This document shows positions 478 to 52,696 of a stretch of 64,000 nucleotides of DNA, piece by piece. The translations under genes and the position numbers were made by a program. Within the stretch, counting starts at the first letter, position 1; each line of letters starts with the position of its first letter. This stretch comes from Miltoncostaeaceae bacterium. GTDB taxonomy: Bacteria; Actinomycetota; Thermoleophilia; Miltoncostaeales; Miltoncostaeaceae. The stretch covers positions 55,560 through 119,559 of the forward strand of contig CAWFXQ010000007.1 of NCBI GenBank assembly GCA_963819845.1, in the 5' to 3' direction. The notes below the pieces were generated by a model that was not told the DNA's origin, ran no database searches, and worked only from the letters and a program-made list of their open reading frames with translations.

Positions 478-1311
478 GTGGCGGCGGTCCAGATGGGCAG
501 CTCCGCCGAGCCCGAGCGCAACCGGCGGACGGCCGAGGCCCTCGTGCGCCGGGCCGCGGCCGCCGGGGCGCGCCTGGTCGTGCTGCCCGAGAAATGGCCC
601 TTCCTCCACGGGCCGCGGACCCTCGAGGGCGCCGAGCCCCTCGACGGGCCCTCGATCGCCGCCGTCCGCGCCTGGGCGGCTGAGCTGGGGATCGCGGTGG
701 TCGCCGGGAGCCTGCTGGAGGCCGTCAACGGCGACGCGCGCGCCCGCAACACCAGCGTGCTCGTGCGCCCGGACGGCTCCGTGGCGGCGGTCTACCGCAA
801 GATCCACATGTTCGACGTGGACGTCGGGGGCGTCGCCTACCGCGAGTCGGCCGCGACGGCGCCCGGCGACGAGGTCGTGGTGGCGGACGCCCTCGGCCAC
901 CGCATCGGCATGTCGGTCTGCTACGACCTGCGCTTCCCGGAGCTCTACCGGCGCCTCGCCGACGGGGGCGCCGAGATCATCGCCGTCCCCGCGGCGTTCA
1001 CGACCGTGACCGGCCGCGACCACTGGGAGCCGCTGCTGCGGGCGCGCGCGATCGAGAACCAGGCCTTCGTCATCGCCGCCGGCCAGCAGGGCCGCCACGA
1101 CGACGGCACCGAGACCCACGGGCGCAGCATGGTCGTCGACCCCTGGGGGATCGTCCTGGCCCAGGCCCCCGACGGGGAGGGGCTGGCGGTCGCCGACCTC
1201 GACTTCGCCCGCCTGCACGAGATCCGCGCCCATCTGCCGGCCCTGCGCCACCGGCGCCCGGACGCCTACGCGCTAGACCTCCCCCGCCCCGGGGACGTCG
1301 AAGGGCAGTGA
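478..1311 (+). CDS. Carbon-nitrogen hydrolase (nitrilase superfamily)
   Basis: ORF 385..1311. It carries the Glu-Lys-Cys triad contexts VVLPEKW, YRKIHMFD and MSVCYDLRFPE. The start is ambiguous: GTG 478 (VAAVQM) is preferred, because ATG 427 would overlap the divergent NifU start codon. Confidence 0.85.
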   Translation: MAAVQMGSSAEPERNRRTAEALVRRAAAAGARLVVLPEKWPFLHGPRTLEGAEPLDGPSIAAVRAWAAELGIAVVAGSLLEAVNGDARARNTSVLVRPDGSVAAVYRKIHMFDVDVGGVAYRESAATAPGDEVVVADALGHRIGMSVCYDLRFPELYRRLADGGAEIIAVPAAFTTVTGRDHWEPLLRARAIENQAFVIAAGQQGRHDDGTETHGRSMVVDPWGIVLAQAPDGEGLAVADLDFARLHEIRAHLPALRHRRPDAYALDLPRPGDVEGQ

Positions 1312-2439
1312 GGGGTCGGCGTGGGCCACGGCTCCGCCGACCAGCGTCAGCCGCGGCGTCAGCCCCGGGTCGAGCACGACCACGTCGGCGGGGTCGCCCG
1401 GAGCCATCCCCGGAAGGCCGAGCAGCGCCCGCGGCGCCCAGGCCGCGGCGGCGAGGGCGGCCGCGGTCCCGACGCCCGCCCCGGCCAGGGTCCGGGGGCC
1501 CGCGTCGAGGGCCATGGCGCTGCCGGCGAGGCGACCCCGCCGGGTCACGCGCCGCCCGTCCGACATCACGGCCCGCCCGGCCAGCAGGTGGCGGCCCGGC
1601 GGCGCGCCGGCGGCCGCGACCGCGTCGCTCACCAGAACCAGCCGCGGGCCCGCGGCCCGGGCGACGACCGCCGCCACCTCCGGCGCCACGTGCACGCCGT
1701 CGCCGATCAGCGAGACCGACGGGCGCGGGTCGGCGAGGGCCGCGGCGAGCGCCGAGGGCCGGCGGCTCTCGATGCCCCGCATGGCGTTGAGCGCGTGGGT
1801 CACCAGCCGGGCCCCGGCGTCGATCGCGGCCCGCCCCGTCCGCGCGTCGGCCTCCGTGTGGCCGATCGCCGCGACGGCCCCCGCCCGCGCGATCCGGCGC
1901 ACCGCCGCCAGCCCGCCGGGCCGCTCGGGCGCCAGCGTCACGATGGCCGGCGCGAAGGCGGCCAGCAGCCGGTCGACCTCGGCCGGGACGGGGTCGCGCA
2001 GCGCCCCGGCCGGGTGGGCGCCCGCCCGGCCGGGCGAGAGGAAGGGACCCTCCAGGTGGACGCCGAGCGCCCGCGCGCCGGGAGGTGTGCCAATTGGCCG
2101 CGCGCGCCTCGGCCAATTGGCCAAGGGCGCCAGCGCGGCCGCCGCCCTGCCGTAGGCCGCCGCGGAGCGGCTCACGAGGGTGGGGCAGAAGGCCGTGACG
2201 CCCGCCGCCGGGAGGGCCGCGGCGACGGCCGCCAGGGCCTCGGCGCCGCCGTCAACCTCGGCCCCGGCGTAGCCGTTCACCTGGAGGTCGACGAAGCCGG
2301 GGGCGACGATCCAACCCTCGGGGAGCTCCCGCACGGCGCGCCGCGGCCCGCCGGCGGCGATGCGGCCGCGGGCGACCGCGACCTCGCCGCGGATCAGGCG
2401 CCGGCCGGCGAGGACCCGGCCGCGCAGGACGAGCGTCAC
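1273..2439 (-). CDS. nagA: N-acetylglucosamine-6-phosphate deacetylase
   Basis: ORF 1273..2547. Motifs: APGFVDLQVNGYAG, HLEGPFLSP, IGHTEA, THALNAM. GTG start at 2439 overlaps the upstream stop by 4 nt (GTGA). Confidence 0.85.
   Translation of the reverse strand: MTLVLRGRVLAGRRLIRGEVAVARGRIAAGGPRRAVRELPEGWIVAPGFVDLQVNGYAGAEVDGGAEALAAVAAALPAAGVTAFCPTLVSRSAAAYGRAAAALAPLANWPRRARPIGTPPGARALGVHLEGPFLSPGRAGAHPAGALRDPVPAEVDRLLAAFAPAIVTLAPERPGGLAAVRRIARAGAVAAIGHTEADARTGRAAIDAGARLVTHALNAMRGIESRRPSALAAALADPRPSVSLIGDGVHVAPEVAAVVARAAGPRLVLVSDAVAAAGAPPGRHLLAGRAVMSDGRRVTRRGRLAGSAMALDAGPRTLAGAGVGTAAALAAAAWAPRALLGLPGMAPGDPADVVVLDPGLTPRLTLVGGAVAHADPSLPFDVPGAGEV
2088..2122. repeat. Paired palindrome module, copy A: TGCCAATTGGCC-N11-GGCCAATTGGCC, inside the nagA CDS
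   Basis: Read directly from the sequence. The two 12-mers start 23 bp apart. On the nagA strand the module is translated in frame as LANWPRRARPIGT. Confidence 0.85.
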
Positions 2440-5133: not shown

Positions 5134-6806
5134 CGCTGGCGCTGGACGTCCCGCCCCGGGCCACCGATGAGGCGGTCGATGCCCGCGCCGCCGAGGAGCG
5201 TGTCGCGCCCGGCGCCGCCGAGCAGCCGGTCGCGCCCGCGCCCGCCGATCAGCGTGTCGCGGCCTGCACCTCCGCAGATGACGTCGGCGCCCCCCAGGCC
5301 GCGGATCACGTCGTTGCCGCCCAGCCCGGCGATGACGTCGCGGCGCGGCGTGCCGCGCAGCCGGTTCGCCCGCGCGGTGCCGGTCCTCGTCGCCGGGAGG
5401 CCCCCGCAGTGGATCCGTCGCGAGGCGCCGGCGGGGGCCACGGTGGGCGACCCGGTCGTGAAGGTGCGGTCGGCCCCGAGCGTCGTGTCGGAGTCGTTGG
5501 TGGCGACCAGGCGGTAGTGGTGCTCGGTCCCGGGCGCGAGCCCGCCAACCGGGGCGGACGCGGCCTGGAAGGCGAGCGAGGCCCCGACGCCGGCCTCGGG
5601 GGTGCGGGAGCCGTATGCGGGCGTCGTCCCGTAGTCGAAGTGGTAGGTCGTCGTCTGGCCGTTGGGCCGAACCGCGCCGGCGAGCGCGGCCGAGGTCGCC
5701 GCCACCGCGCCGGCCGGCCCCGTCACCGCCGCCGGCCCGACCGAGATGCGGAACACCCGTCCCGGGTCTTGGCTTCCGACCACCCACATCGCGCCGTCCG
5801 GACCCGCCGTGATGCCGTTGGGGAGGGCGTTGGCGGCGAGTCCCGGCGTCATGCCGCCGGCCAGCTCGGTCACCCGGCCGTCCGGGGTGATGCGGGCGAT
5901 CCGCCCCGGGTTCGCCCCCTGGGTGAACCACAGGTTGCCGTCGGGTCCGGCCGCGATGTTGCCGGGGCTGCCGTTGGCCGTGAAGCCGGGCGTCACGCCG
6001 CCCGTGAACTCGGTCACCCGACCGCCGGGCGTGATCCGCGCGACCCGGCCGGGGGCGAGCGACTGGGTGAACCACAGGTTCCCGTCGGCCCCCGCCGCGA
6101 TGTCGATGGGGATGCCGCCGGCGCTGAAGCCGGGGGTCACGCCTCCCGTGAACTCCGTCACCTGACCCCCCGGGGTGACCCGCGCCACCCGGCCGGGCCC
6201 CGCGCTCATCGCAACCCATAGGTTGCCGTCGGGGCCGCTCGTGATCCTGTTGGGCCGGGCGTTGGCGGTGAAGCCCGGCGTCGCGCCCCCGGTGAGCTGC
6301 GTCACCGCGAACGACGGCGTGATCCTCACGATGCCGCCGGGATCCGCGAAGAGGGTGAACCAGACGTTGCCGTCGGGCCCGGCCGTGATGCCCGCGGGCG
6401 TGCCGTTGGCGCTGAACGAGAACGGCCCTCCGCCGGCCAGCTCGCCGACGCCGACGGTGATCCGGGCCACTGCGCCCGGGTTCGCCTCCCCGAGGAACCA
6501 CATCGGGCCATCGGGGCCGGCGGCGAGCCGCGTGGGCCTACGGTCGGCGGTGAACCCGGAGGTGACTCCCCCCGTGAACTCGGTGGCCTGCCCGGCCGGC
6601 GTCATGCGCACGATGTGACCCGGGTCGTTGAGCAGACTGAACCACAGGTTGCCGTCGTTGCCCGCCGCGATGCCCACCGGAAAGGCGTTCGCCGAGTAGC
6701 CGGCCGGGCCCGGCAGGAACTCGGTCACGGTCGGAGCGCTCGCGGCGGCGGACGGACCGAGGGCCGCGAGCAGGAGCGCGGCCAGCGTCGGGAGAAGGCG
6801 CCGCAC
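5130..6806 (-). CDS. Secreted beta-propeller protein: Vgb (streptogramin lyase)-like repeats plus C-terminal RTX-type GGxGxD repeats
   Basis: Signal peptide [24 protein letters not shown]. About 8 repeats of GPDGNLWFT...RITP.G.VTEF. The C-terminus is [42 protein letters not shown]. Confidence 0.8.
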
Positions 6807-15363: not shown

Positions 15364-15503
15364 GGCCACGGCGGAGACGGCCAAGTGGCCACGGCGGAGA
15401 CGGCAAGTGGCCACGCGGGACGGCAAGTGGCCACGGCGGAGACGGCCAAGTGGCCACGGCGGAGACGGCCAAGTGGCCACGGCGGAGACGGCCAAGTGGC
15501 CAC
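15364..15503. repeat. Tandem array: six cores of GGCCAAGTGGCC (two lack one C), each followed by the constant spacer ACGGCGGAGAC
   Basis: Cores start at 15379, 15402, 15422, 15444, 15467 and 15490, giving periods of 23/20/22/23/23. A leading partial unit GGCC-ACGGCGGAGAC is at 15364. The array begins 14 nt after the nth-like stop. Confidence 0.9.
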
Positions 15504-15574: not shown

Positions 15575-15597
15575 ATCTCAGTCGGACCGACTAAGAT
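15575..15597. promoter_or_regulatory. HAIR-like inverted repeat (candidate HspR operator) upstream of dnaK
   Basis: ATCTCAGTCGG-A-CCGACTAAGAT has 11-bp arms with 1 mismatch. The core TCTCAGT-N7-ACTAAGA shares the 7-N7-7 geometry of HAIR, CTTGAGT-N7-ACTCAAG. The right arm GACTAAGATC is repeated as GACTTAGATC at 15614-15623. Confidence 0.4.
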
Positions 15598-15601
15598 CGC
15601 C

Positions 15602-15629
15602 TTGACATGGCCTGACTTAGATCTACCAT
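15602..15629 (+). promoter_or_regulatory. Sigma-70-like promoter of the dnaK operon (TTGACA-N16-TACCAT)
   Basis: Perfect -35 at 15602-15607 and a TAnnnT -10 at 15624-15629. It lies about 60 nt upstream of ATG 15690, which is preceded by the ribosome-binding site GAGGAGGA. Confidence 0.5.
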
Positions 15630-18657: not shown

Positions 18658-19764
18658 GTGGACGACCTCTACGCGGCGCTCGGCGTCTCGCGCACCGCGA
18701 GCACCGACGAGATCCGGAAGGCCTACCGGAAGCTGGCGCGGGTGCACCACCCCGACGCCAACCCGGACGACCCGAAGGCCGAGGAGCGCTTCAAGGAGAT
18801 CTCCCACGCGCACGACGTCCTGTCCGACGCGGACAAGCGCCGCGAGTACGACGCCATGGCCGCGCTCGGGGGCCGGCGCCCCAACGGCGGGCCCGGCGGC
18901 CAGACCTGGTCCCCGGGCGGCGAGGGCGGCGGCTTCGGCGACTTCGCCGACCTGTTCTCGTCGATCTTCCGAGGAGGCGGCGGCGGCGGGCGGGCCCAGG
19001 GGGCCCAGGAGCCGGCGGCGCGGCGCGGGGGCGATGTCGAGGTCGAGGTCAACCTGTCGTTCGAGCAGGCGATGGCCGGCGCCCAGGTGCCGGTGCAGGT
19101 CGAGACGCCGGTGGCGTGCGCCGACTGCAACGGCAGCGGCGCCAAGCCCGGGACCAGCCCGCGCCTGTGCCCCGAGTGCAAGGGGCGGGGCGTCCTCGGC
19201 CGCGACGTCGGGTCGTTCGCGTTCAGCGAGCCGTGCCCGCGCTGCGGCGGCGTCGGCACGGTCATCGACGACCCCTGCCCGACCTGCCGCGGCACCGGCA
19301 GCACGTCCACGCGGTCCCAGATCAAGGTGAAGATCCCGCCGGGCGTGAAGGACGGGACCAAGATCCGCCTCAGGGGCAAGGGCCAGGCCGGCGTCCGCGG
19401 GGGCCCGGCGGGCGACCTGCAGGTCGTGACCCGGGTCGCGCCCAGCCGCCTCTACACCCGCCGGGGCGACGACCTCCTGATCGACGTGCCCGTGACCTTC
19501 TCCGAGGCGGCCCTCGGCGCCCAGGTCGAGGTGCCGACCATCGACGGGCGCGTGAAGCTGCGCGTTCCGCCGGGCAGCGCGGACGGCCGCCAGCTGCGCC
19601 TGGCCGGCAAGGGCGCCCCGCGCCTGAAGGGGGAGGGCCGCGGCGCCCTGATCGCCAAGCTCAGGGTGCAGGTGCCGCGCGAGCTCTCCGACGACCAGCG
19701 CGAGGCGCTGGAGCGCTACGCCGAGCTCGACGGCGGCGACCCGCGGGAGGCGCTGTTCCGATGA
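18658..19764 (+). CDS. dnaJ: Co-chaperone DnaJ
   Basis: J domain DLYAALGV...HPD, G-rich linker, four CxxCxG zinc motifs, and the C-terminal substrate-binding domains. Confidence 0.93.
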
Positions 19765-20198
19765 GCACCGGGTCGCGCGGGGGCGTGTTCCTGATCGGCA
19801 TCGCGGCGGAGCTGGCCGGGATGCACCCCCAGACCCTGCGCGTCTACGAGCGCCGCGGGCTCATCACCCCGGCCCGCAGCCCTCGCAACACGCGCCTCTA
19901 CTCCGAGCGGGACGTGGCCCTGCTGCGGCGCATCCAGGAGCTGTCGGAGGAGGGCCTCAACCTCGCCGGGATCGAGCGCGTCCTGCGGCTCGAGAAGGAG
20001 CTCGAGCGCGCCGAGCGGCGCATCCGGGACCTGGCCCTGGAGCTCGGGGAGGCCACGGAGCGCCACCGCGACGAGCTGGCCGCCGCGCGCGCCGCGCGCG
20101 GCCAGATGGTCGTGGCGGCGCGCGACGGGATGGCGCTGGTGCCGCGCTATGCGCCGGCCGTGCCGCGCCGGCGGACGACGATGGAGGGACGCGCCTGA
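19761..20198 (+). CDS. hspR: MerR-family heat-shock repressor HspR
   Basis: MerR HTH: [46 protein letters not shown] overlaps the dnaJ stop (ATGA). The position after dnaJ matches actinobacterial dnaK operons. Confidence 0.85.
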
Positions 20199-34046: not shown

Positions 34047-34081
34047 GGCCAATTGGCCAAAGGCGCCACGGCCAATTGGCC
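34047..34081. repeat. Paired palindrome module, copy B: GGCCAATTGGCC-N11-GGCCAATTGGCC
   Basis: Two perfect 12-mers at 34047 and 34070, in the divergent intergenic region between the NAGPA-like gene (start 33986) and the histidine kinase. Confidence 0.9.
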
Positions 34082-45387: not shown

Positions 45388-45429
45388 GCCGCCGGCAAGG
45401 GCCGCTCGCCTGTGTGCGAGGCTCCCCCG

Positions 45430-46452
45430 ATGATCCGCACGGTGATCGTCGGCGGCGGGATGGTGGGTCTGACGCTGGCCGGCCTGCTGAGGGCCCGGGG
45501 CCACGACCCCGTGGTGCTGGAGCGGGCGCCGGCCGGCGCCCACGGGCCGCGGGGCTTCATGCTCGGCTACCAGGGCTACGACGCCTTCGCGGAGCTCGGC
45601 GTCCTCGACCGCCTTCGCGCGGCCGGACGCGACGTGGGGGTGGGGCCGAACGGCGTCCCCATCGGGATCGCGGTTGACTACCGCATCGTGATGCGTACCG
45701 TGGCCGAGGGCGTCCCGGTCGCCCACGGCGAGTCGGTGGTCGACCTCCTGCGCGACGGCGACCGCGTCGTCGGGGTCGTCACCGAGGGCCCGGGCGGCCG
45801 CGCGCGCGTCGAGGCGGACCTCGTGGTGGCGTGCGACGGGCGCGGCTCGGCGGTGCGGGAGATGGCGGGCATCGAGGCGCAGCTCTCGCCCCTCAACGAC
45901 GCCTATCTGTCCTTCCTCAGCCCCGTGGCGCCGGAGCAGCTCTTCGGCTTCCGCTACCTCTCCGACGGCGGGATGATCACGATGCTCGGCTGGCCGGAGG
46001 GCTCGAGCGGCTCGAGGCGCGTCGACAAGGTGGGCGAGGAGGCGGTCAAGGCGCCGCCCCTCGGCCGCTTCACGCGCACCTTCGCCGAGCTGCTGCCGGA
46101 GGCGCGGGAGATCGTCTCGGGCGTGACCTCCTGGGCCCAGGTGCGCTACGTCGAGCCCCGCCTGCTGCGCTGCACGCGCTGGTGGGTGCCCGGGGTGGTC
46201 GTGATCGGCGACTCCGCCCACACCTTCGGGCCGGACACCGGCGTGGGCGCCGGCATCGGACTGCAGGACGCCCACGCCCTGACCGAGGCGATCGTCCGGG
46301 CGGACGAGGCCGACGCCGCCTGCGAGAGCTACGTCGCCTGGCGCGAGCCCGCCGTGCGGCCCTACGAGGCCATGGACCCGGCCTGGCAGCGGATGGCGGA
46401 GATCCCCCCGGCGATCCCCGCGGAGGCCTGGCCGCCCCGCGACCGCGGTTAG
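45430..46452 (+). CDS. FAD-dependent monooxygenase (aromatic-ring hydroxylase-like)
   Basis: MIRTVIVGGGMVGLTLAGLL (GxGxxG), DLVVACDGRGS, VVIGDSAH...P..G.G. Confidence 0.85.
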   Translation: MIRTVIVGGGMVGLTLAGLLRARGHDPVVLERAPAGAHGPRGFMLGYQGYDAFAELGVLDRLRAAGRDVGVGPNGVPIGIAVDYRIVMRTVAEGVPVAHGESVVDLLRDGDRVVGVVTEGPGGRARVEADLVVACDGRGSAVREMAGIEAQLSPLNDAYLSFLSPVAPEQLFGFRYLSDGGMITMLGWPEGSSGSRRVDKVGEEAVKAPPLGRFTRTFAELLPEAREIVSGVTSWAQVRYVEPRLLRCTRWWVPGVVVIGDSAHTFGPDTGVGAGIGLQDAHALTEAIVRADEADAACESYVAWREPAVRPYEAMDPAWQRMAEIPPAIPAEAWPPRDRG

Positions 46453-49473: not shown

Positions 49474-50633
49474 GCGCCGCCACGCCCGGGCCCATCGCGC
49501 CCCACGGGGGCACGCTCGTCGAGCGGTTCGACGACGCCCTCGACGAGGGCGGCGGGCGCCCCCGGGTCACGCTCACCGCCCGTCAGCAGGCCGACCTCGA
49601 CCTGATCGCCGTCGGCGCCCTGTCGCCGCTCGACGGCTTCATGGGCCGCGAGGCCTACGAGACCGTGGTCGAGGACATGCGTCTGCCGAACGGCCTCGCC
49701 TGGTCGGTGCCGGTGACGCTCGGCGTGAGCCCCGAGGAGCTCGAGGGCGTCGGATCGTCCGACGAGGTCGCGCTGGTCGACGACGGCGGGCGGTTCCTCG
49801 GGATCCTCGAGGTGACCGACCGCTACGAGACCGACCCGCGCCGCGAGGCCCGGCTCGTCTACGGGACCGAGGACGACGCGCACCCCGGGGTCGCCTCGCT
49901 CTACGCCCACGGCACCACGGCGCTCGCCGGGCCCGTGCGGGTGGCGTCGCGGATGCCGATCGACCCCGCGGCCCAGTCCTTCCTGCTCGACCCGCGCGCG
50001 TCGCGGGCCGAGTTCGACGCGCGCGGCTGGCGCAGCGTGGTGGGGTTCCAGACGCGCAACCCGATCCACCGGGCGCACGAGTACATCACCAAGGTGGCGC
50101 TGGAGACGGTCGACGGCCTGTTCCTCCACCCGCTGGTGGGCGAGACCAAGAGCGACGACATCCCCGCCGACGTGCGGATGCGCTGCTACGAGGTGCTGAT
50201 CGAGGGCTACTACCCGCAGGAGCGGGTGGTCCTGGGCGTGCTGCCGGCGGCCATGCGCTACGCGGGGCCCCGCGAGGCGGTGCTCCACGCGATCCTGCGC
50301 CAGAACTACGGCTGCACCCACTTCATCGTCGGCCGCGACCACGCCGGCGTGGGCGACTACTACGGCACCTACGACGCCCACCGCATCTTCGACGAGGTCA
50401 CCCGCGACGAGCTGGCGATCCAGCCGCTCTTCTTCGAGCACTCGTTCTGGTGCAACCTCACCGGCGGCATGGCGACCACCAAGACGTCGCCGGCCGGGCC
50501 CGAGGACCGCGTCTTCCTCTCGGGCACGAAGGTCCGCGAGATGCTCGGCCGCGGGGAGATCCCCCCGGTCGAGTTCACCCGCCCCGAGGTCGCCAAGGTT
50601 CTGATCGAGGCGTACTCGGGAACCCCCGCCTAG
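49470..50633 (+). CDS. sat: Sulfate adenylyltransferase (ATP sulfurylase, Sat type)
   Basis: Motifs: [37 protein letters not shown] 49470 overlaps the comA stop (TTGA). Confidence 0.9.
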
Positions 50634-50646
50634 CGCCTCGTCCCGA

Positions 50647-50670
50647 CGCCCGCCCATCCGGGGGCGGGCC
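50647..50670 (+). terminator. GC hairpin after sat
   Basis: GCCCGCCC-atccgg-GGGCGGGC, 14 nt after the stop. No T-tract. Confidence 0.35.
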
Positions 50671-50699
50671 GCTCGGGATCGCCCGCCCGGCCGTCCGAT

Positions 50700-50734
50700 G
50701 GCCAATTGGCCATCGCGCGCTCGGCCAATCGGCC
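50700..50734. repeat. Paired palindrome module, copy C1: GGCCAATTGGCC-N11-GGCCAATCGGCC
   Basis: Read directly. The 12-mers are at 50700 and 50723. Confidence 0.9.
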
Positions 50735-50807
50735 GACCGTCCGCCTCGGGGGCCGCCCGCCGCGCCCTCCGCTGCCACGGCCCGGGCAGAGCGGGTGGGC
50801 CGGGGGT

Positions 50808-50842
50808 GGCCATTTGGCCGTCGGGTGGGCGGCCAATCGGTT
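50808..50842. repeat. Paired palindrome module, copy C2 (degenerate): GGCCATTTGGCC-N11-GGCCAATCGGTT
   Basis: Read directly. The 12-mers are at 50808 and 50831, and the second runs into a TTGACA hexamer. Confidence 0.8.
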
Positions 50843-50870
50843 GACAAGCGGCACGCCCTCGTGCTCCTTT

Positions 50871-50898
50871 CGATCCGCGCGGGGGTCGATCCGCGCGG
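50871..50898. repeat. Direct repeat CGATCCGCGCGG x2 (16-bp period)
   Basis: Copies at 50871-50882 and 50887-50898. They lie immediately upstream of ATG 50922. Confidence 0.6.
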
Positions 50899-50921
50899 CC
50901 GATGTGGTGGATCCTCGGGCC

Positions 50922-51449
50922 ATGGCGCGGAGCCTGTACAAGGGGCAGGGACTGGGGAACCGGCCACCGTGTCTGCTCTGCATGGGACCGGGGGAGGGGG
51001 ACCGGGCCGAGCTGCGCCTGCCGTACGGCGTGTCGGTGTGGCTCTGCGCGGCGCACCGGAGCCTCGAGTTCGGGGTCCTGAGGTCGCTTCGGGAGGGAGC
51101 CCCCACCGCCCGGGGTCGACCCCCAGCCACCGCCGGGCGGGTGGCCGGGGCAGGGTCGTGTGGAGGCCCAGGACGACCCTGCCCCGACCTTCGCCGCCCC
51201 CGGACCCTGCACGACCTCGCGTGCCCGACGACTGGGCGGAGGGGTTCCCCGACGACCGCGCCGGACCATCACGTCGGCCCGGACCGGGGGGCGGGGCGGG
51301 TCGTGCAGCGTGCACGTGCAGGGCAGGCACGGCGCGGACCCGGGGTCGCGTGGCGGACGACCTCATGCGCTCTTGGACCCGGCCGGGTCAAGAGGCCGCA
51401 GGTCACCGGAGTGCCGGCCGGCAGCCGGTTGCGAGCAGCCGGTGGCTAG
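50922..51449 (+). CDS. Hypothetical protein with an N-terminal CxxC...CxxH zinc-ribbon-like segment and an R/G/P-rich tail
   Basis: Internal ATG of ORF 50706..51449, with high GC3 throughout. Sequence MARSLYKGQGLGNRPPCLLCMGPGEGDRAELRLPYGVSVWLCAAHRSLEF. No family recognised, and all three frames are open here. Confidence 0.3.
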   Translation: MARSLYKGQGLGNRPPCLLCMGPGEGDRAELRLPYGVSVWLCAAHRSLEFGVLRSLREGAPTARGRPPATAGRVAGAGSCGGPGRPCPDLRRPRTLHDLACPTTGRRGSPTTAPDHHVGPDRGAGRVVQRARAGQARRGPGVAWRTTSCALGPGRVKRPQVTGVPAGSRLRAAGG

Positions 51450-51610
51450 CCAGCCGGGCGCTCGTAGCCGAGGACGTGGTACTGCCAGTGGTCGAGGTAC
51501 ACCTCGCGGGCTGCGGGTTGTCCCTGGCCGCGAGCCACTCCCTCGCCGCCCGCCAGGGCCACGGCCGCCTCAAGGAGAGCGACCGCGGCCGAGTCCAGTC
51601 TCGTCGTTGC

Positions 51611-52009
51611 TCAGCCCAGCAGGCCGGCGCCGGCCAGCAGCGTTGCCGTGTCCCAGTAGACGCGCTCCTCACGGATCAGGTCGCCCGCCATCTCGCACAC
51701 GCTGACACCGCGCAGCTCGACCTGCTCGCCGCGGGCGGGCCAGCCGGGCATCTCGCCCGTGTGGGTGCCCTTCCAGGTCCATTCCACGGTGACCGTGCCG
51801 TCCTCGCCCCGTGTCTCCTTGTGGATCTCAAGCGAACAGTCGGGCAGCGCGTTCACGGAGTTCTGGGCGTGCTCTGCGATCGCCTCCCGTCCCTCGAGAC
51901 GCGCGGGGGGCAACGCGTACTCGATCCGGACGCCGTCGGGGGTGAACGCCTGCGCCACGGACTCGCCGCTTCGCCCGTTCCACGCCTGCTGAAGCCTGGT
52001 GAGCGCCAT
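51611..52009 (-). CDS. SnoaL-like (NTF2 superfamily) ester-cyclase-type protein
   Basis: ORF 51611..52009. ...EWTWKGTHTGEMPG.PA.G..VELRGVSVCEMAGDLIREERVYWD is typical of the SnoaL family. Ribosome-binding site GAGAGGAGG. Confidence 0.8.
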   Translation of the reverse strand: MALTRLQQAWNGRSGESVAQAFTPDGVRIEYALPPARLEGREAIAEHAQNSVNALPDCSLEIHKETRGEDGTVTVEWTWKGTHTGEMPGWPARGEQVELRGVSVCEMAGDLIREERVYWDTATLLAGAGLLG

Positions 52010-52033
52010 CTGGGCCTCCTCTCGCCTCGCGGC

Positions 52034-52318
52034 CTATCGGCGAATGCGGCCGCCATCCACCACGCCGATAGCCTCGGGCGAGGCTAACGCCCGCTTCCCT
52101 GGTACGGCAAGGACGTGCGGCGGCGAGGCGCGCAGGCGGCCCGTTCGACGCCTGACGCTGACCTCATCGGCGCTCGTGGCAGGACACCATGTGAGGCGGC
52201 GGTCGAGGATCTGGGCCCGGGTCTGCCAAGCGGCCTCCCCCACGCCCAGGATCTGCGGCTCGATATCTACGACGCTCGGGATCCCGCCCGGGTAGGTGAC
52301 GTGCTCGAAGGCTCTCAC
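52034..52318 (-). CDS. Hypothetical protein or gene remnant upstream of the SnoaL-like gene
   Basis: GTG inside ORF 52034..52672. High GC3 in VRAFEHVTYPGGIPSVVDIEPQILGVGEAAWQTRAQILD. The stop is 24 nt before the SnoaL start. No family recognised. Confidence 0.3.
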   Translation of the reverse strand: MRAFEHVTYPGGIPSVVDIEPQILGVGEAAWQTRAQILDRRLTWCPATSADEVSVRRRTGRLRASPPHVLAVPGKRALASPEAIGVVDGGRIRR

Positions 52319-52696
52319 GATGCCGCACCCCGCCTTCCAGAGGCGCCGGGCGGGGCGGGACTTCGTCGCATCCCTCGCCCGGGTGGGCGTCGGCCGGGTG
52401 CCTGACGCGGGCGCGGCATCGGGCGCTCGACGCCCACCGGGAGGGTGGTCCCGCCTCCGCCGGGCCGCCGCCGCCGCCCGGGGTCCTATTCCTGGCCCGC
52501 GCTGCGGCGCGAGGCGGAGCGGCGGTTCGCCGCCGGATAGGACCCGCGGCGCGTCGTCGAGGCCCTCCTCGCCCGGGAGCGGGCCGGCCGGGCGGTGCCG
52601 CCGTCGCGGCGGACCATGCGGCGCTGGTTCGCGGAGGGCCGCTGGCGCGGTGACGGCTCGCGCCCGGCGCACCGGCCGCGCCCGCCCCGCCCGCCC

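Follow-up and report, generated by a model that had tools for sequence, protein, structure and literature searches.

Phased palindromic boxes in Thermoleophilia and their linkage to an orphan zinc-ribbon gene family

Box modules and the broken ZnR gene in the window

The window, i.e. the whole stretch of 64,000 nucleotides of a Miltoncostaeaceae bacterium that was analysed, has a GC content of 75.8%; a preliminary description of this DNA had put the genome at about 73%. Two modules of paired palindromes, C1 and C2, lie between an ATP-sulfurylase gene (sat), whose orthologue in the syntenic locus L127 carries the PF01747 domain, and an open reading frame starting at 50922. Module C1 (50700-50734) comprises a box GGCCAATTGGCC at 50700-50711, an 11-nt linker and a box GGCCAATCGGCC at 50723-50734; it is located 67 bp past the sat stop codon, its boxes beginning 222 and 199 nt ahead of the ATG at 50922. 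Module C2 (50808-50842, plus strand) is built in the same way, with GGCCATTTGGCC at 50808-50819, an 11-nt linker and GGCCAATCGGTT at 50831-50842. The distance from box start to ATG is here exactly 114 nt for the first box and 91 nt for the second, which carries three mismatches and merges into a TTGACA motif (50840-50845). No canonical promoter or terminator was found at C1 or C2, nor any terminator-like site in 50500-51100.

The open reading frame from 50922 is homologous to an intact gene of the loci L100 and L059 that codes for an orphan protein of ~160 aa, here termed ZnR, with an N-terminal zinc ribbon of the form CxxC...CxxH and a C-terminal three-helix domain. In the window this gene is broken in three ways, by an insertion, a frameshift and a stop codon, and is a pseudogene. 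The N-terminal remnant (50922-51071, plus strand; residues 1-50, MARSLYKGQGLGNRPPCLLCMG...WLCAAHRSLEF) was identified by tblastn, by alignment with L100 and by a protein family search. It is followed by an insertion of 1263 bp (51072-52334), which holds a SnoaL-like gene on the minus strand (51611-52009), and then by the C-terminal remnants (52335-52645, plus strand), with a frameshift between 52440 and 52484 and a TAG at 52538-52540 replacing a Glu codon of L100. Perfect boxes persist in the window although the gene is disrupted. The label ‘sat-downstream’ in the preliminary description is misleading, in that C2, and probably C1, are part of the upstream region of the ZnR gene, and C2 is no terminator of sat; a two-pair arrangement like that of C1 and C2 is also present in other genomes without an adjacent sat.

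Boxes of the form GGCCA-NN-TGGCC phased at exactly 23 bp occur at five loci of the window, a six-unit tandem array included, i.e. at a density of about one locus per 13 kb. Module A (2088-2122), with TGCCAATTGGCC at 2088, an 11-nt linker and GGCCAATTGGCC at 2111, lies in frame within nagA (1273-2439, minus strand) and encodes the peptide ANW-x6-PIG. The tandem array (15364-15503) has 6.3 units of 23 bp with the box GGCCAAGTGGCC and identical linkers; it begins 14 bp past the stop of a putative nth gene and ends ~187 bp before the start of dnaK. Module B (34047-34081) consists of two perfect GGCCAATTGGCC boxes starting 23 bp apart, at 34047 and 34070, and separates two divergently transcribed genes, a NAGPA-like one on the minus strand and one for a PAS histidine kinase on the plus strand. 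All eight 12-mers of modules A, B, C1 and C2 are found where the preliminary description had placed them, with the starts of C1 and C2 108 bp apart, and its observation that the paired 12-mers of all four modules are exactly 23 bp apart, with an 11-nt linker that differs in each, is borne out. Its list of four copies, all of them real, was nevertheless incomplete, since the 6.3-unit array had been overlooked. It had further judged a chance origin of phased pairs to be implausible. When up to two mismatches are allowed, GGCCAATTGGCC has 12 matches in the window against 2.2 expected, with none of 100 shuffles reaching 12, and the core GCCANNTGGC has 13 against 1.8 expected.

Sequence, distribution and conservation of the boxes

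The general core of the box is CANNTG with 3-4 self-complementary flanking bases, which in this lineage takes the form Y-GGCCA-NN-TGGCC-R. The boxes come in phased pairs or in short tandem arrays, and their period is 23 bp here but 20-24 bp in other lineages. Across 72 pairs the consensus is Y-GGCCA[A/C][T/G]TGGCC-R with a weak bias at the next base outward: conservation extends over ~16 bp (Y-GGCCANNTGGCC-R), the Y and R flank preferences are independent of each other, and the seven central bases of the linker and the outer flanks carry no information, so that the boxes are not part of a larger concealed element. Several known classes of repeat were considered and rejected: a larger mobile element of the MITE type, as conservation stops at ~16 bp per box; a CRISPR array, as the repeats are of 12-16 bp with linkers of 7-11 bp in 2-6 units, the longest array having identical linkers; and a known RNA family, as Rfam at gathering thresholds matched only one tRNA in the window.

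One genome from each of 185,579 species was scanned for two boxes 5-35 nt apart, which returned at least 118 stretches. The 12-mer excess and spacing preference that the preliminary description expected elsewhere were recovered, in that the spacing histogram over these genomes has its highest peak at 23 bp (at least 54 pairs), with lesser peaks at 24 bp (at least 12 pairs) and 20 bp (at least 10 pairs). Among the matches listed, the box repeats are confined to MAGs of the Thermoleophilia type, and nearly all of the 23-bp pairs come from Thermoleophilia, Miltoncostaeaceae and Gaiellales MAGs with more than 70% GC. The same scan picked up a 23-bp triple in Roseivirgaceae, which does not resemble the box family; a 23-bp pair in Thermodesulfobacteriota, also unlike the family, adjoins a sigma-54 activator gene and is treated as an ordinary activator site; and an 8-bp peak of the histogram stems from (GGCCAATT)n microsatellites unrelated to the boxes. 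A further set of ~1 Mb of loci was retrieved via protein rather than via the DNA pattern: it holds 19 neighbouring pairs of generic palindromic CANNTG boxes at 20-24 bp, as against none in the reversed-sequence control, and 31 of its 44 relaxed pairs are at 23 bp. By GC3-based gene calls, 63 of 72 arrays are outside coding sequences. The searched literature yielded no account of either the boxes or the ZnR protein family, and the box family is apparently a lineage-specific and previously undescribed system.

Comparison across species bears on the age of the modules and on how they change. Three of the loci with 23-bp pairs, L039, L115 and L100, share synteny with the window (75-87% identity), which assigns the window to the Miltoncostaeaceae. 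The region of module B is well conserved with L039, the linkers being more diverged than the flanks, and the orthologous module there has four boxes instead of two, an exact difference of 46 bp. Both C1 and C2 are kept in L100, with the intervening 73 nt unalignable. The insert encoded by module A is present in seven other NagA proteins of 76-81% aa identity, i.e. in eight genomes including that of the window, as a segment of 9-10 aa of the form ANW (AKW in one)-x6-PIG, which corresponds to box, free linker and box; the AKW variant matches the tolerated box centre AAGT. It is absent from P0132/L209 (P0132 being 80% identical) and from all more distant orthologues, a pattern of presence and absence that the DNA of L208 and L209 confirms. 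The combination of conserved boxes and diverged linkers across species points to modules that are old and kept by selection on the boxes, and that change mainly through slippage of 23-bp units. The phased boxes were also noted to be hot spots of copy-number change and to adjoin synteny breaks; they are usable as a lineage marker and are a cause of gene-calling errors. Several gene callers had extended the ZnR open reading frame across the boxes.

Linkage of the boxes to the ZnR gene family

The locus L059 was retrieved solely for its boxes, yet it encodes ZnR just downstream of three box pairs, and this coincidence led to a systematic test of the box-gene linkage. A metagenome scan with the family alignment returned 351 relatives, from which 80 loci were kept and 76 compared with their start codons in register. 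In 48 of these 76 homologous loci CANNTG is found at -113 to -109 from the start codon, against about one of the 76 that base composition would predict by chance. In all ten individually inspected genomes a box pair ends ~80-90 nt before the ZnR start while the neighbouring genes differ, and when six genomes are aligned, nothing but the two boxes is conserved as a block in the 110 nt before that start. The first box of this upstream pair (box 1) is a strong site and the second (box 2) is systematically half-degenerate, its right half reading TTGCGAC, TTGTGAC or TTGACA. No -10 element of the form TANNNT was detected in the 90 nt before the start codon across 44 homologous loci. In the genomes inspected the boxes are only ever upstream of the ZnR gene, never on both sides of it. 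The phased and conserved box family is in this manner linked to the ZnR gene family.

Within this framework C2 is best read from its position and sequence as the canonical upstream pair, a conserved upstream control element of the ZnR gene, the gene being decayed here. Additional C1-like pairs are seen ~100-170 nt further upstream in L100, L119, L126, L135 and L137, among others, those of L100 and L119 being equivalent in place to C1, and the syntenic L127 has a four-box array 19 bp past the sat stop. We read C1 either as an accessory upstream pair or as what is left of an array downstream of sat such as that of L127; an attempt to derive it from the L127 array by alignment gave no clear result.

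The box sequence varies between lineages in a concerted fashion. Its outer bases take the forms GGCC/GGCC, GGTCC/GGACC, GTCCC/GGGAC, CGCC/GGCG, TGCC/GGCA and GTGC/GCAC, and are symmetric throughout. Correspondingly, box 1 upstream of ZnR shows Watson-Crick symmetry at the second position out from the core in 36 cases where 17.6 are expected and at the third position in 34 where 18.3 are expected, with several types of base pair. A lineage's own box variant recurs elsewhere in the same contig at 1.29 per locus, as against 0.31 for foreign variants, and it often recurs as a pair that repeats the lineage-specific spacing seen upstream of the gene (24/24 in L159, 20/20 in L156 and 23 in L149). The exceptions are L139 and L141, whose dispersed pairs are of the GGTCC type and whose local gene-upstream pairs are of the GCGCAC type; this mismatch raises the possibility of more than one protein/box system per genome.

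The ZnR family itself is compact and uncharacterized. A collection of 5.8 billion proteins holds 246 homologues, all of them unannotated and none with a Pfam domain, and an exhaustive profile search found only 347 representatives of clusters at 50% identity. The few members with a named source all come from Miltoncostaea, Miltoncostaeaceae or Gaiellales, the taxa that have box pairs. An AlphaFold2 model (pLDDT 84) features a β-hairpin zinc ribbon followed by five helices, and the zinc ligand residues C17, C20, C42 and H45 are invariant or nearly so. Two sequence motifs, PGSYAWP and RTMRRW..GRW, are also invariant. ZnR found nothing significant in Pfam, NCBIfam, PHROGs or a PDB sequence-profile search, the single Pfam match being a sub-threshold excisionase-like one (E=0.04). 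Foldseek likewise recovered no significant neighbour for the whole model or for its C-terminal domain, all E-values being above 4; the non-significant list for the C-terminal domain is mostly made up of helix-turn-helix DNA-binding domains (RcsB/NarL, RpoN, the Sf6 small terminase, Mos1, StbA, Sin). A role in nucleic-acid binding is plausible for the predicted fold.

Competing readings and comparison with known systems

We infer from these patterns that a protein binds the boxes and that ZnR is the binder, as well as the direction of its regulation. The reading that we prefer, to which we give a probability of about 45%, holds that the boxes are cis-sites of the ZnR protein, that C2 is its autoregulatory operator and that the dispersed copies are REP-like. 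A dimer of ZnR would occupy box 1, the strong palindrome starting at -114 from the start codon, and would, by virtue of the fixed spacing of about two helical turns, assist a second dimer in binding to box 2, the weaker site starting at -91. Binding at box 2, with its right half resembling TTGCGAC or TTGACA, might thereby autoregulate the ZnR gene, and pairs further upstream, such as C1, could add cooperativity. Modules A and B, the array upstream of dnaK and the sat-downstream arrays would be more sites of the same protein: retained by selection, altered in copy number by 23-bp slippage and for the most part confined to the only permissive space, that past stop codons, where they could double as roadblocks or hairpin terminators.

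As the boxes occupy a fixed place before its gene, ZnR is the likeliest factor to bind them, a candidacy that draws on linkage and co-variation and is tentatively held, as the gene is a pseudogene in the window; a second copy of ZnR or a recent loss must be assumed here. The preliminary description had left a choice between a dimer-of-dimers operator and a REP-like stem-loop; both are viable, and the family seems to combine properties of the two. For C2 the operator is favored by the fixed position in 48 of 76 loci, by the succession of a strong and a degenerate box and by the strict lineage-specific spacing. Like operators, the boxes are palindromic sites at a fixed distance between centres, with a position relative to the gene that is conserved across species; against this, lineages differ in spacing by 3-4 bp and so in helical phase, and the lack of a sigma-70-like -10 element downstream of box 2 in the 44 loci also counts against an operator. 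Nor are the sites concentrated in promoter regions, as dispersed copies lie between convergent genes and inside nagA. For these the REP-like alternative fits, on account of their placement past stop codons, between convergent genes and within a gene. The boxes are, as REPs are, short, abundant, mostly extragenic and lineage-specific palindromes; near-identical copies with a shared spacer would be expected of REPs, and here the linkers differ at every locus. No RAYT gene was seen in the contig sequences covered.

The main rival, which we hold to be somewhat unlikely, is that the boxes are hairpins of the REP/REPIN or TRIT kind, functioning at RNA 3'-ends or in single-stranded DNA. They would serve as bidirectional terminators or mRNA stabilizers and would have spread as small insertions into permissive intergenic gaps; ZnR would either recognize the hairpin, as RAYTs do REPs or as does the RNA-binding factor proposed for TRIT, or be unrelated to it. 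It gains its rank from placement: the dispersed pairs typically begin 9-18 bp past a stop codon, many of them filling the gap between convergent genes (at distances of 18/17 bp in L127, 10/11 bp in L159 and 15/16 bp in L120), and convergent contexts outnumber divergent ones 11 to 5. Such post-stop pairs, among them those between tightly convergent genes, where a promoter would not be expected, are unusual for the regulon of a transcription factor but usual for REPs and terminators. Modules are also seen in divergent promoter regions and are conserved within coding sequence, which counts against the hairpin. All modules are predicted to fold stably (-22 to -29 kcal/mol), as palindromic boxes trivially do; the z-score is -1.3 for module A, -3 to -5 for the other three pair modules and -3.7 for the array upstream of dnaK. 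No T-run or U-tract follows any module in the window. The module-sized in-frame insert of nagA is suggestive of unit-wise insertion, but the linkers are unrelated between copies, which speaks against a replicating master sequence. The symmetric co-variation of the boxes is consistent with a stem, yet no excess of Watson-Crick covariation is apparent either in the sequence flanking single boxes or in the outer and inner extensions of the pairs. Upstream of ZnR, the asymmetries of box 1 on the sense strand are T..G in 25 cases and C..A in 7, the lineages not being independent, and its centre is polar (ANTT 25, AANT 3); the two together hint at a strand-specific constraint on this box, at the level of RNA or single-stranded DNA. 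Dispersed boxes, by contrast, are free of wobble bias when oriented by the upstream gene's strand (T..G 28 vs C..A 23). The centres of paired boxes are complementary in L125, L126, L139, L141 and L154, which favors a hairpin, whereas in the GGCC lineages the asymmetric centres of adjacent boxes are direct-identical in 21 cases and complementary in one; moreover, box 2 upstream of ZnR is often, across many lineages, not complementary to box 1 and nevertheless keeps its position. The signals for and against a hairpin are thus divided, and ZnR may yet recognize a folded strand. Precedents for such hairpins exist in TRIT, with 147 palindromic copies associated with gene ends in M. tuberculosis (PMC3152330), and in REPIN doublets, whose arms are conserved and lie a fixed distance apart, with more freedom in the spacer (PMC3116915).

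That the boxes are operators of some other global regulator or nucleoid-associated protein, the ZnR gene being just the most conserved of its targets, appears to us quite improbable. It would draw on the same cis evidence as the preferred reading, and it would sit well with intact boxes beside a ZnR pseudogene and with a DNA-binding fold of ZnR that is only predicted; but ZnR is the sole gene that is recurrently beside the boxes, its named members come from taxa with box pairs, the sequence and spacing of the boxes co-vary with the gene-linked pair in the way of a cognate pair, and no further candidate protein emerged. We consider it very improbable indeed that the boxes are neutral, slippage-prone minisatellites seeded by a chance palindrome. 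Orthologous loci do differ by exact multiples of 23 bp and the identical-linker arrays do resemble recent products of slippage, but the pattern of conservation strongly disfavors neutrality: boxes are kept across species, even in coding sequence, as linkers and flanks diverge, their position upstream of the ZnR family is fixed, and their enrichment and phasing are far above chance. A bolder extension of the preferred reading, which we regard as doubtful, is that the boxes and ZnR make up a RAYT-independent REP-like system in which an orphan protein co-evolves with the boxes, maintains them and perhaps once spread them. If true, such a system would have paralogous protein/box variants coexisting and boxes under selection even within coding sequences, and ZnR could be a new genome-wide architectural or transcription-boundary factor of Thermoleophilia.

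The Thermoleophilia are Actinomycetota abundant in soil and sediment, with almost no molecular genetics. Should the link between boxes and ZnR hold, it would give a function and a testable DNA or RNA ligand to an orphan family of ~350 sequence clusters; it would be a second case, besides REP-RAYT, of dispersed palindromes co-evolving with one dedicated host gene; and it would offer a candidate answer to how gene ends are marked in very GC-rich actinobacteria without U-tract terminators.

Among known systems, the operators OR1-OR3 of phage lambda are 17-bp palindromes with centres 23-24 bp apart, which bind cooperative repressors of the phage type. The boxes are comparable in that they too are palindromes in the range of 12-17 bp whose centres are some two helical turns apart, in the presence of a strong and a weaker site at a promoter-like sequence, and in the extra pairs further upstream. 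They differ in being dispersed through the chromosome, promoterless sites included, and in a candidate binder without a recognized repressor fold. The Rickettsia palindromic elements (RPE) insert in frame into protein-coding genes; module A is similarly an in-frame palindromic repeat, tolerated in NagA as an extra surface loop of 8-10 aa. However, an RPE is 100-150 bp in length and conserved throughout, whereas module A is conserved only in its two boxes of 9-12 bp.

The REP/BIME/REPIN elements and their RAYTs, known from Enterobacteria and Pseudomonas (PMC3116915; PMC3337134), are likewise short, species-specific and mostly extragenic palindromes. The box doublets share with REPINs the conserved arms, the less conserved spacer and the fixed distance between arms; both boxes and REPs have a cognate variant beside one particular gene and cluster past gene ends, and the co-variation of box variant and ZnR gene between lineages can be likened to that of REP variants and RAYT genes (PMC3116915). 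In contrast to REPs, the linked gene codes for a ~160-aa protein with a zinc ribbon and three-helix domain, not for an HUH/Y1 transposase, and the boxes lie only upstream of it rather than on both sides as for RAYT. Further, each box is itself palindromic, the arrays are direct phased repeats of up to six units, the linkers are unrelated between copies with no sign of recent replication of a unit, and there is no GTAG head. With TRIT (PMC3152330; in vitro, PMC3993855) the boxes have in common a high-GC actinobacterial host, a conserved palindromic stem near gene ends, bidirectionality by virtue of being palindromic and the lack of a U-tract, and the sequence conservation of TRIT had also prompted the idea of a binding factor (PMC3152330). 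TRIT nonetheless forms one long stem-loop overlapping the stop codon (at about position -8), whereas the boxes are pairs or arrays with free linkers, usually at +9 to +18 after the stop, and are additionally found in promoter regions, in coding sequence and at a fixed place upstream of one gene family.

Transcription and integrity of the ZnR gene

The region between the paired palindromic boxes and the gene for the small Zn-ribbon/three-helix protein (ZnR, ~160 aa, starting at 50922 in the window) displays a further sequence signature. Across the ZnR-homologue loci (L128-L207), recurrent GGCAC(G/A) motifs with a spacing of ~11 or 22 bp are observed ~75 to 45 nt upstream of the start codon, downstream of box 2; the corresponding region of the window is at about 50848-50870, and in some lineages the motif is replaced by GGAAC. 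A TANNNT -10 element upstream of ZnR is absent in all 44 of 44 loci. The motif region may be a promoter of the ECF type, or a second regulator may have its site there. In public gene calls the ZnR ORF is given as 277-280 aa instead of ~160 (L119, L120 and other called genes), with the extension in several proteins running upstream through the box region: these over-long calls are artefacts of gene prediction in very GC-rich DNA.

In the window, ZnR is split exactly between ...SLEF and QRRRAGRDF by a 1263-bp insertion (51072-52334), which carries a SnoaL-like gene on the minus strand (51611-52009); neither terminal repeats nor a target duplication were obvious. Two more ZnR genes, at 10001-10492 of L127, a locus syntenic with the window, and at 10001-10429 of L126, have lost the conserved C-terminal RTMRRW..GRW region via an apparent frameshift or truncation. 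These shortened genes are either further pseudogenes or indel errors of MAG assemblies.

Box arrays, synteny breaks and coexisting box types

Comparison of the window with L127 and the likewise syntenic L115 revealed that box arrays coincide with synteny breaks (window 45405-46446 and 50645-52331). In L127 the ZnR pair is separated from the sat-downstream array by metE, a gene that is missing in the window. At the 46463 junction, L115 possesses more than six boxes and the window one extra gene; L127 has neither. Box arrays may be hot spots of recombination or indels. Two of the ZnR-homologue loci, L139 (8243-8441) and L141 (13484-13607), contain dispersed GGTCCAATTGGACC-type pairs, unlike the pair upstream of the local ZnR gene, which is of the GCGCACTTGGGC type. 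This difference suggests that several paralogous protein/box systems could coexist within one genome.

The dnaK upstream region and other repeats

A HAIR-like inverted repeat, TCTCAGT-N7-ACTAAGA, is found upstream of the putative dnaK gene (15576-15629 region), adjoined by a good sigma-70-like promoter (TTGACA, 15602-15607; 16 nt; TACCAT, 15624-15629), with the 23-bp box array (15364-15503) ~70 bp upstream of the repeat. By its position between the putative dnaJ and clpB genes, the ORF at 19761-20198 could be hspR.

Separately, a tandem repeat of ~3 copies of a 144-bp unit (71-77% identity; 5784-6416) lies inside a minus-strand ORF and presumably encodes a repeated protein domain. Microsatellites of 8 bp, with 4-6 or more units, occur as (GGCCAATT)n in Phycisphaeraceae (L003, L014, L019, L053, L054 and others), found again on many contigs of the same MAGs, and in Streptomyces (L010, L029) as (GGCCAACT)n or (GGCCACTT)n.

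Boxes with 23-bp spacing in unrelated phyla

GGCCANNTGGCC boxes 23 bp apart are also present in Roseivirgaceae (L007 1676-1733; L107), where they form a triple with identical linkers, and in Thermodesulfobacteriota (L040 4174-4208; L097 1481-1515). Since the L040 pair is flanked by genes for an NtrC-type sigma-54 activator and a response-regulator/kinase, it is probably an enhancer-binding-protein site.
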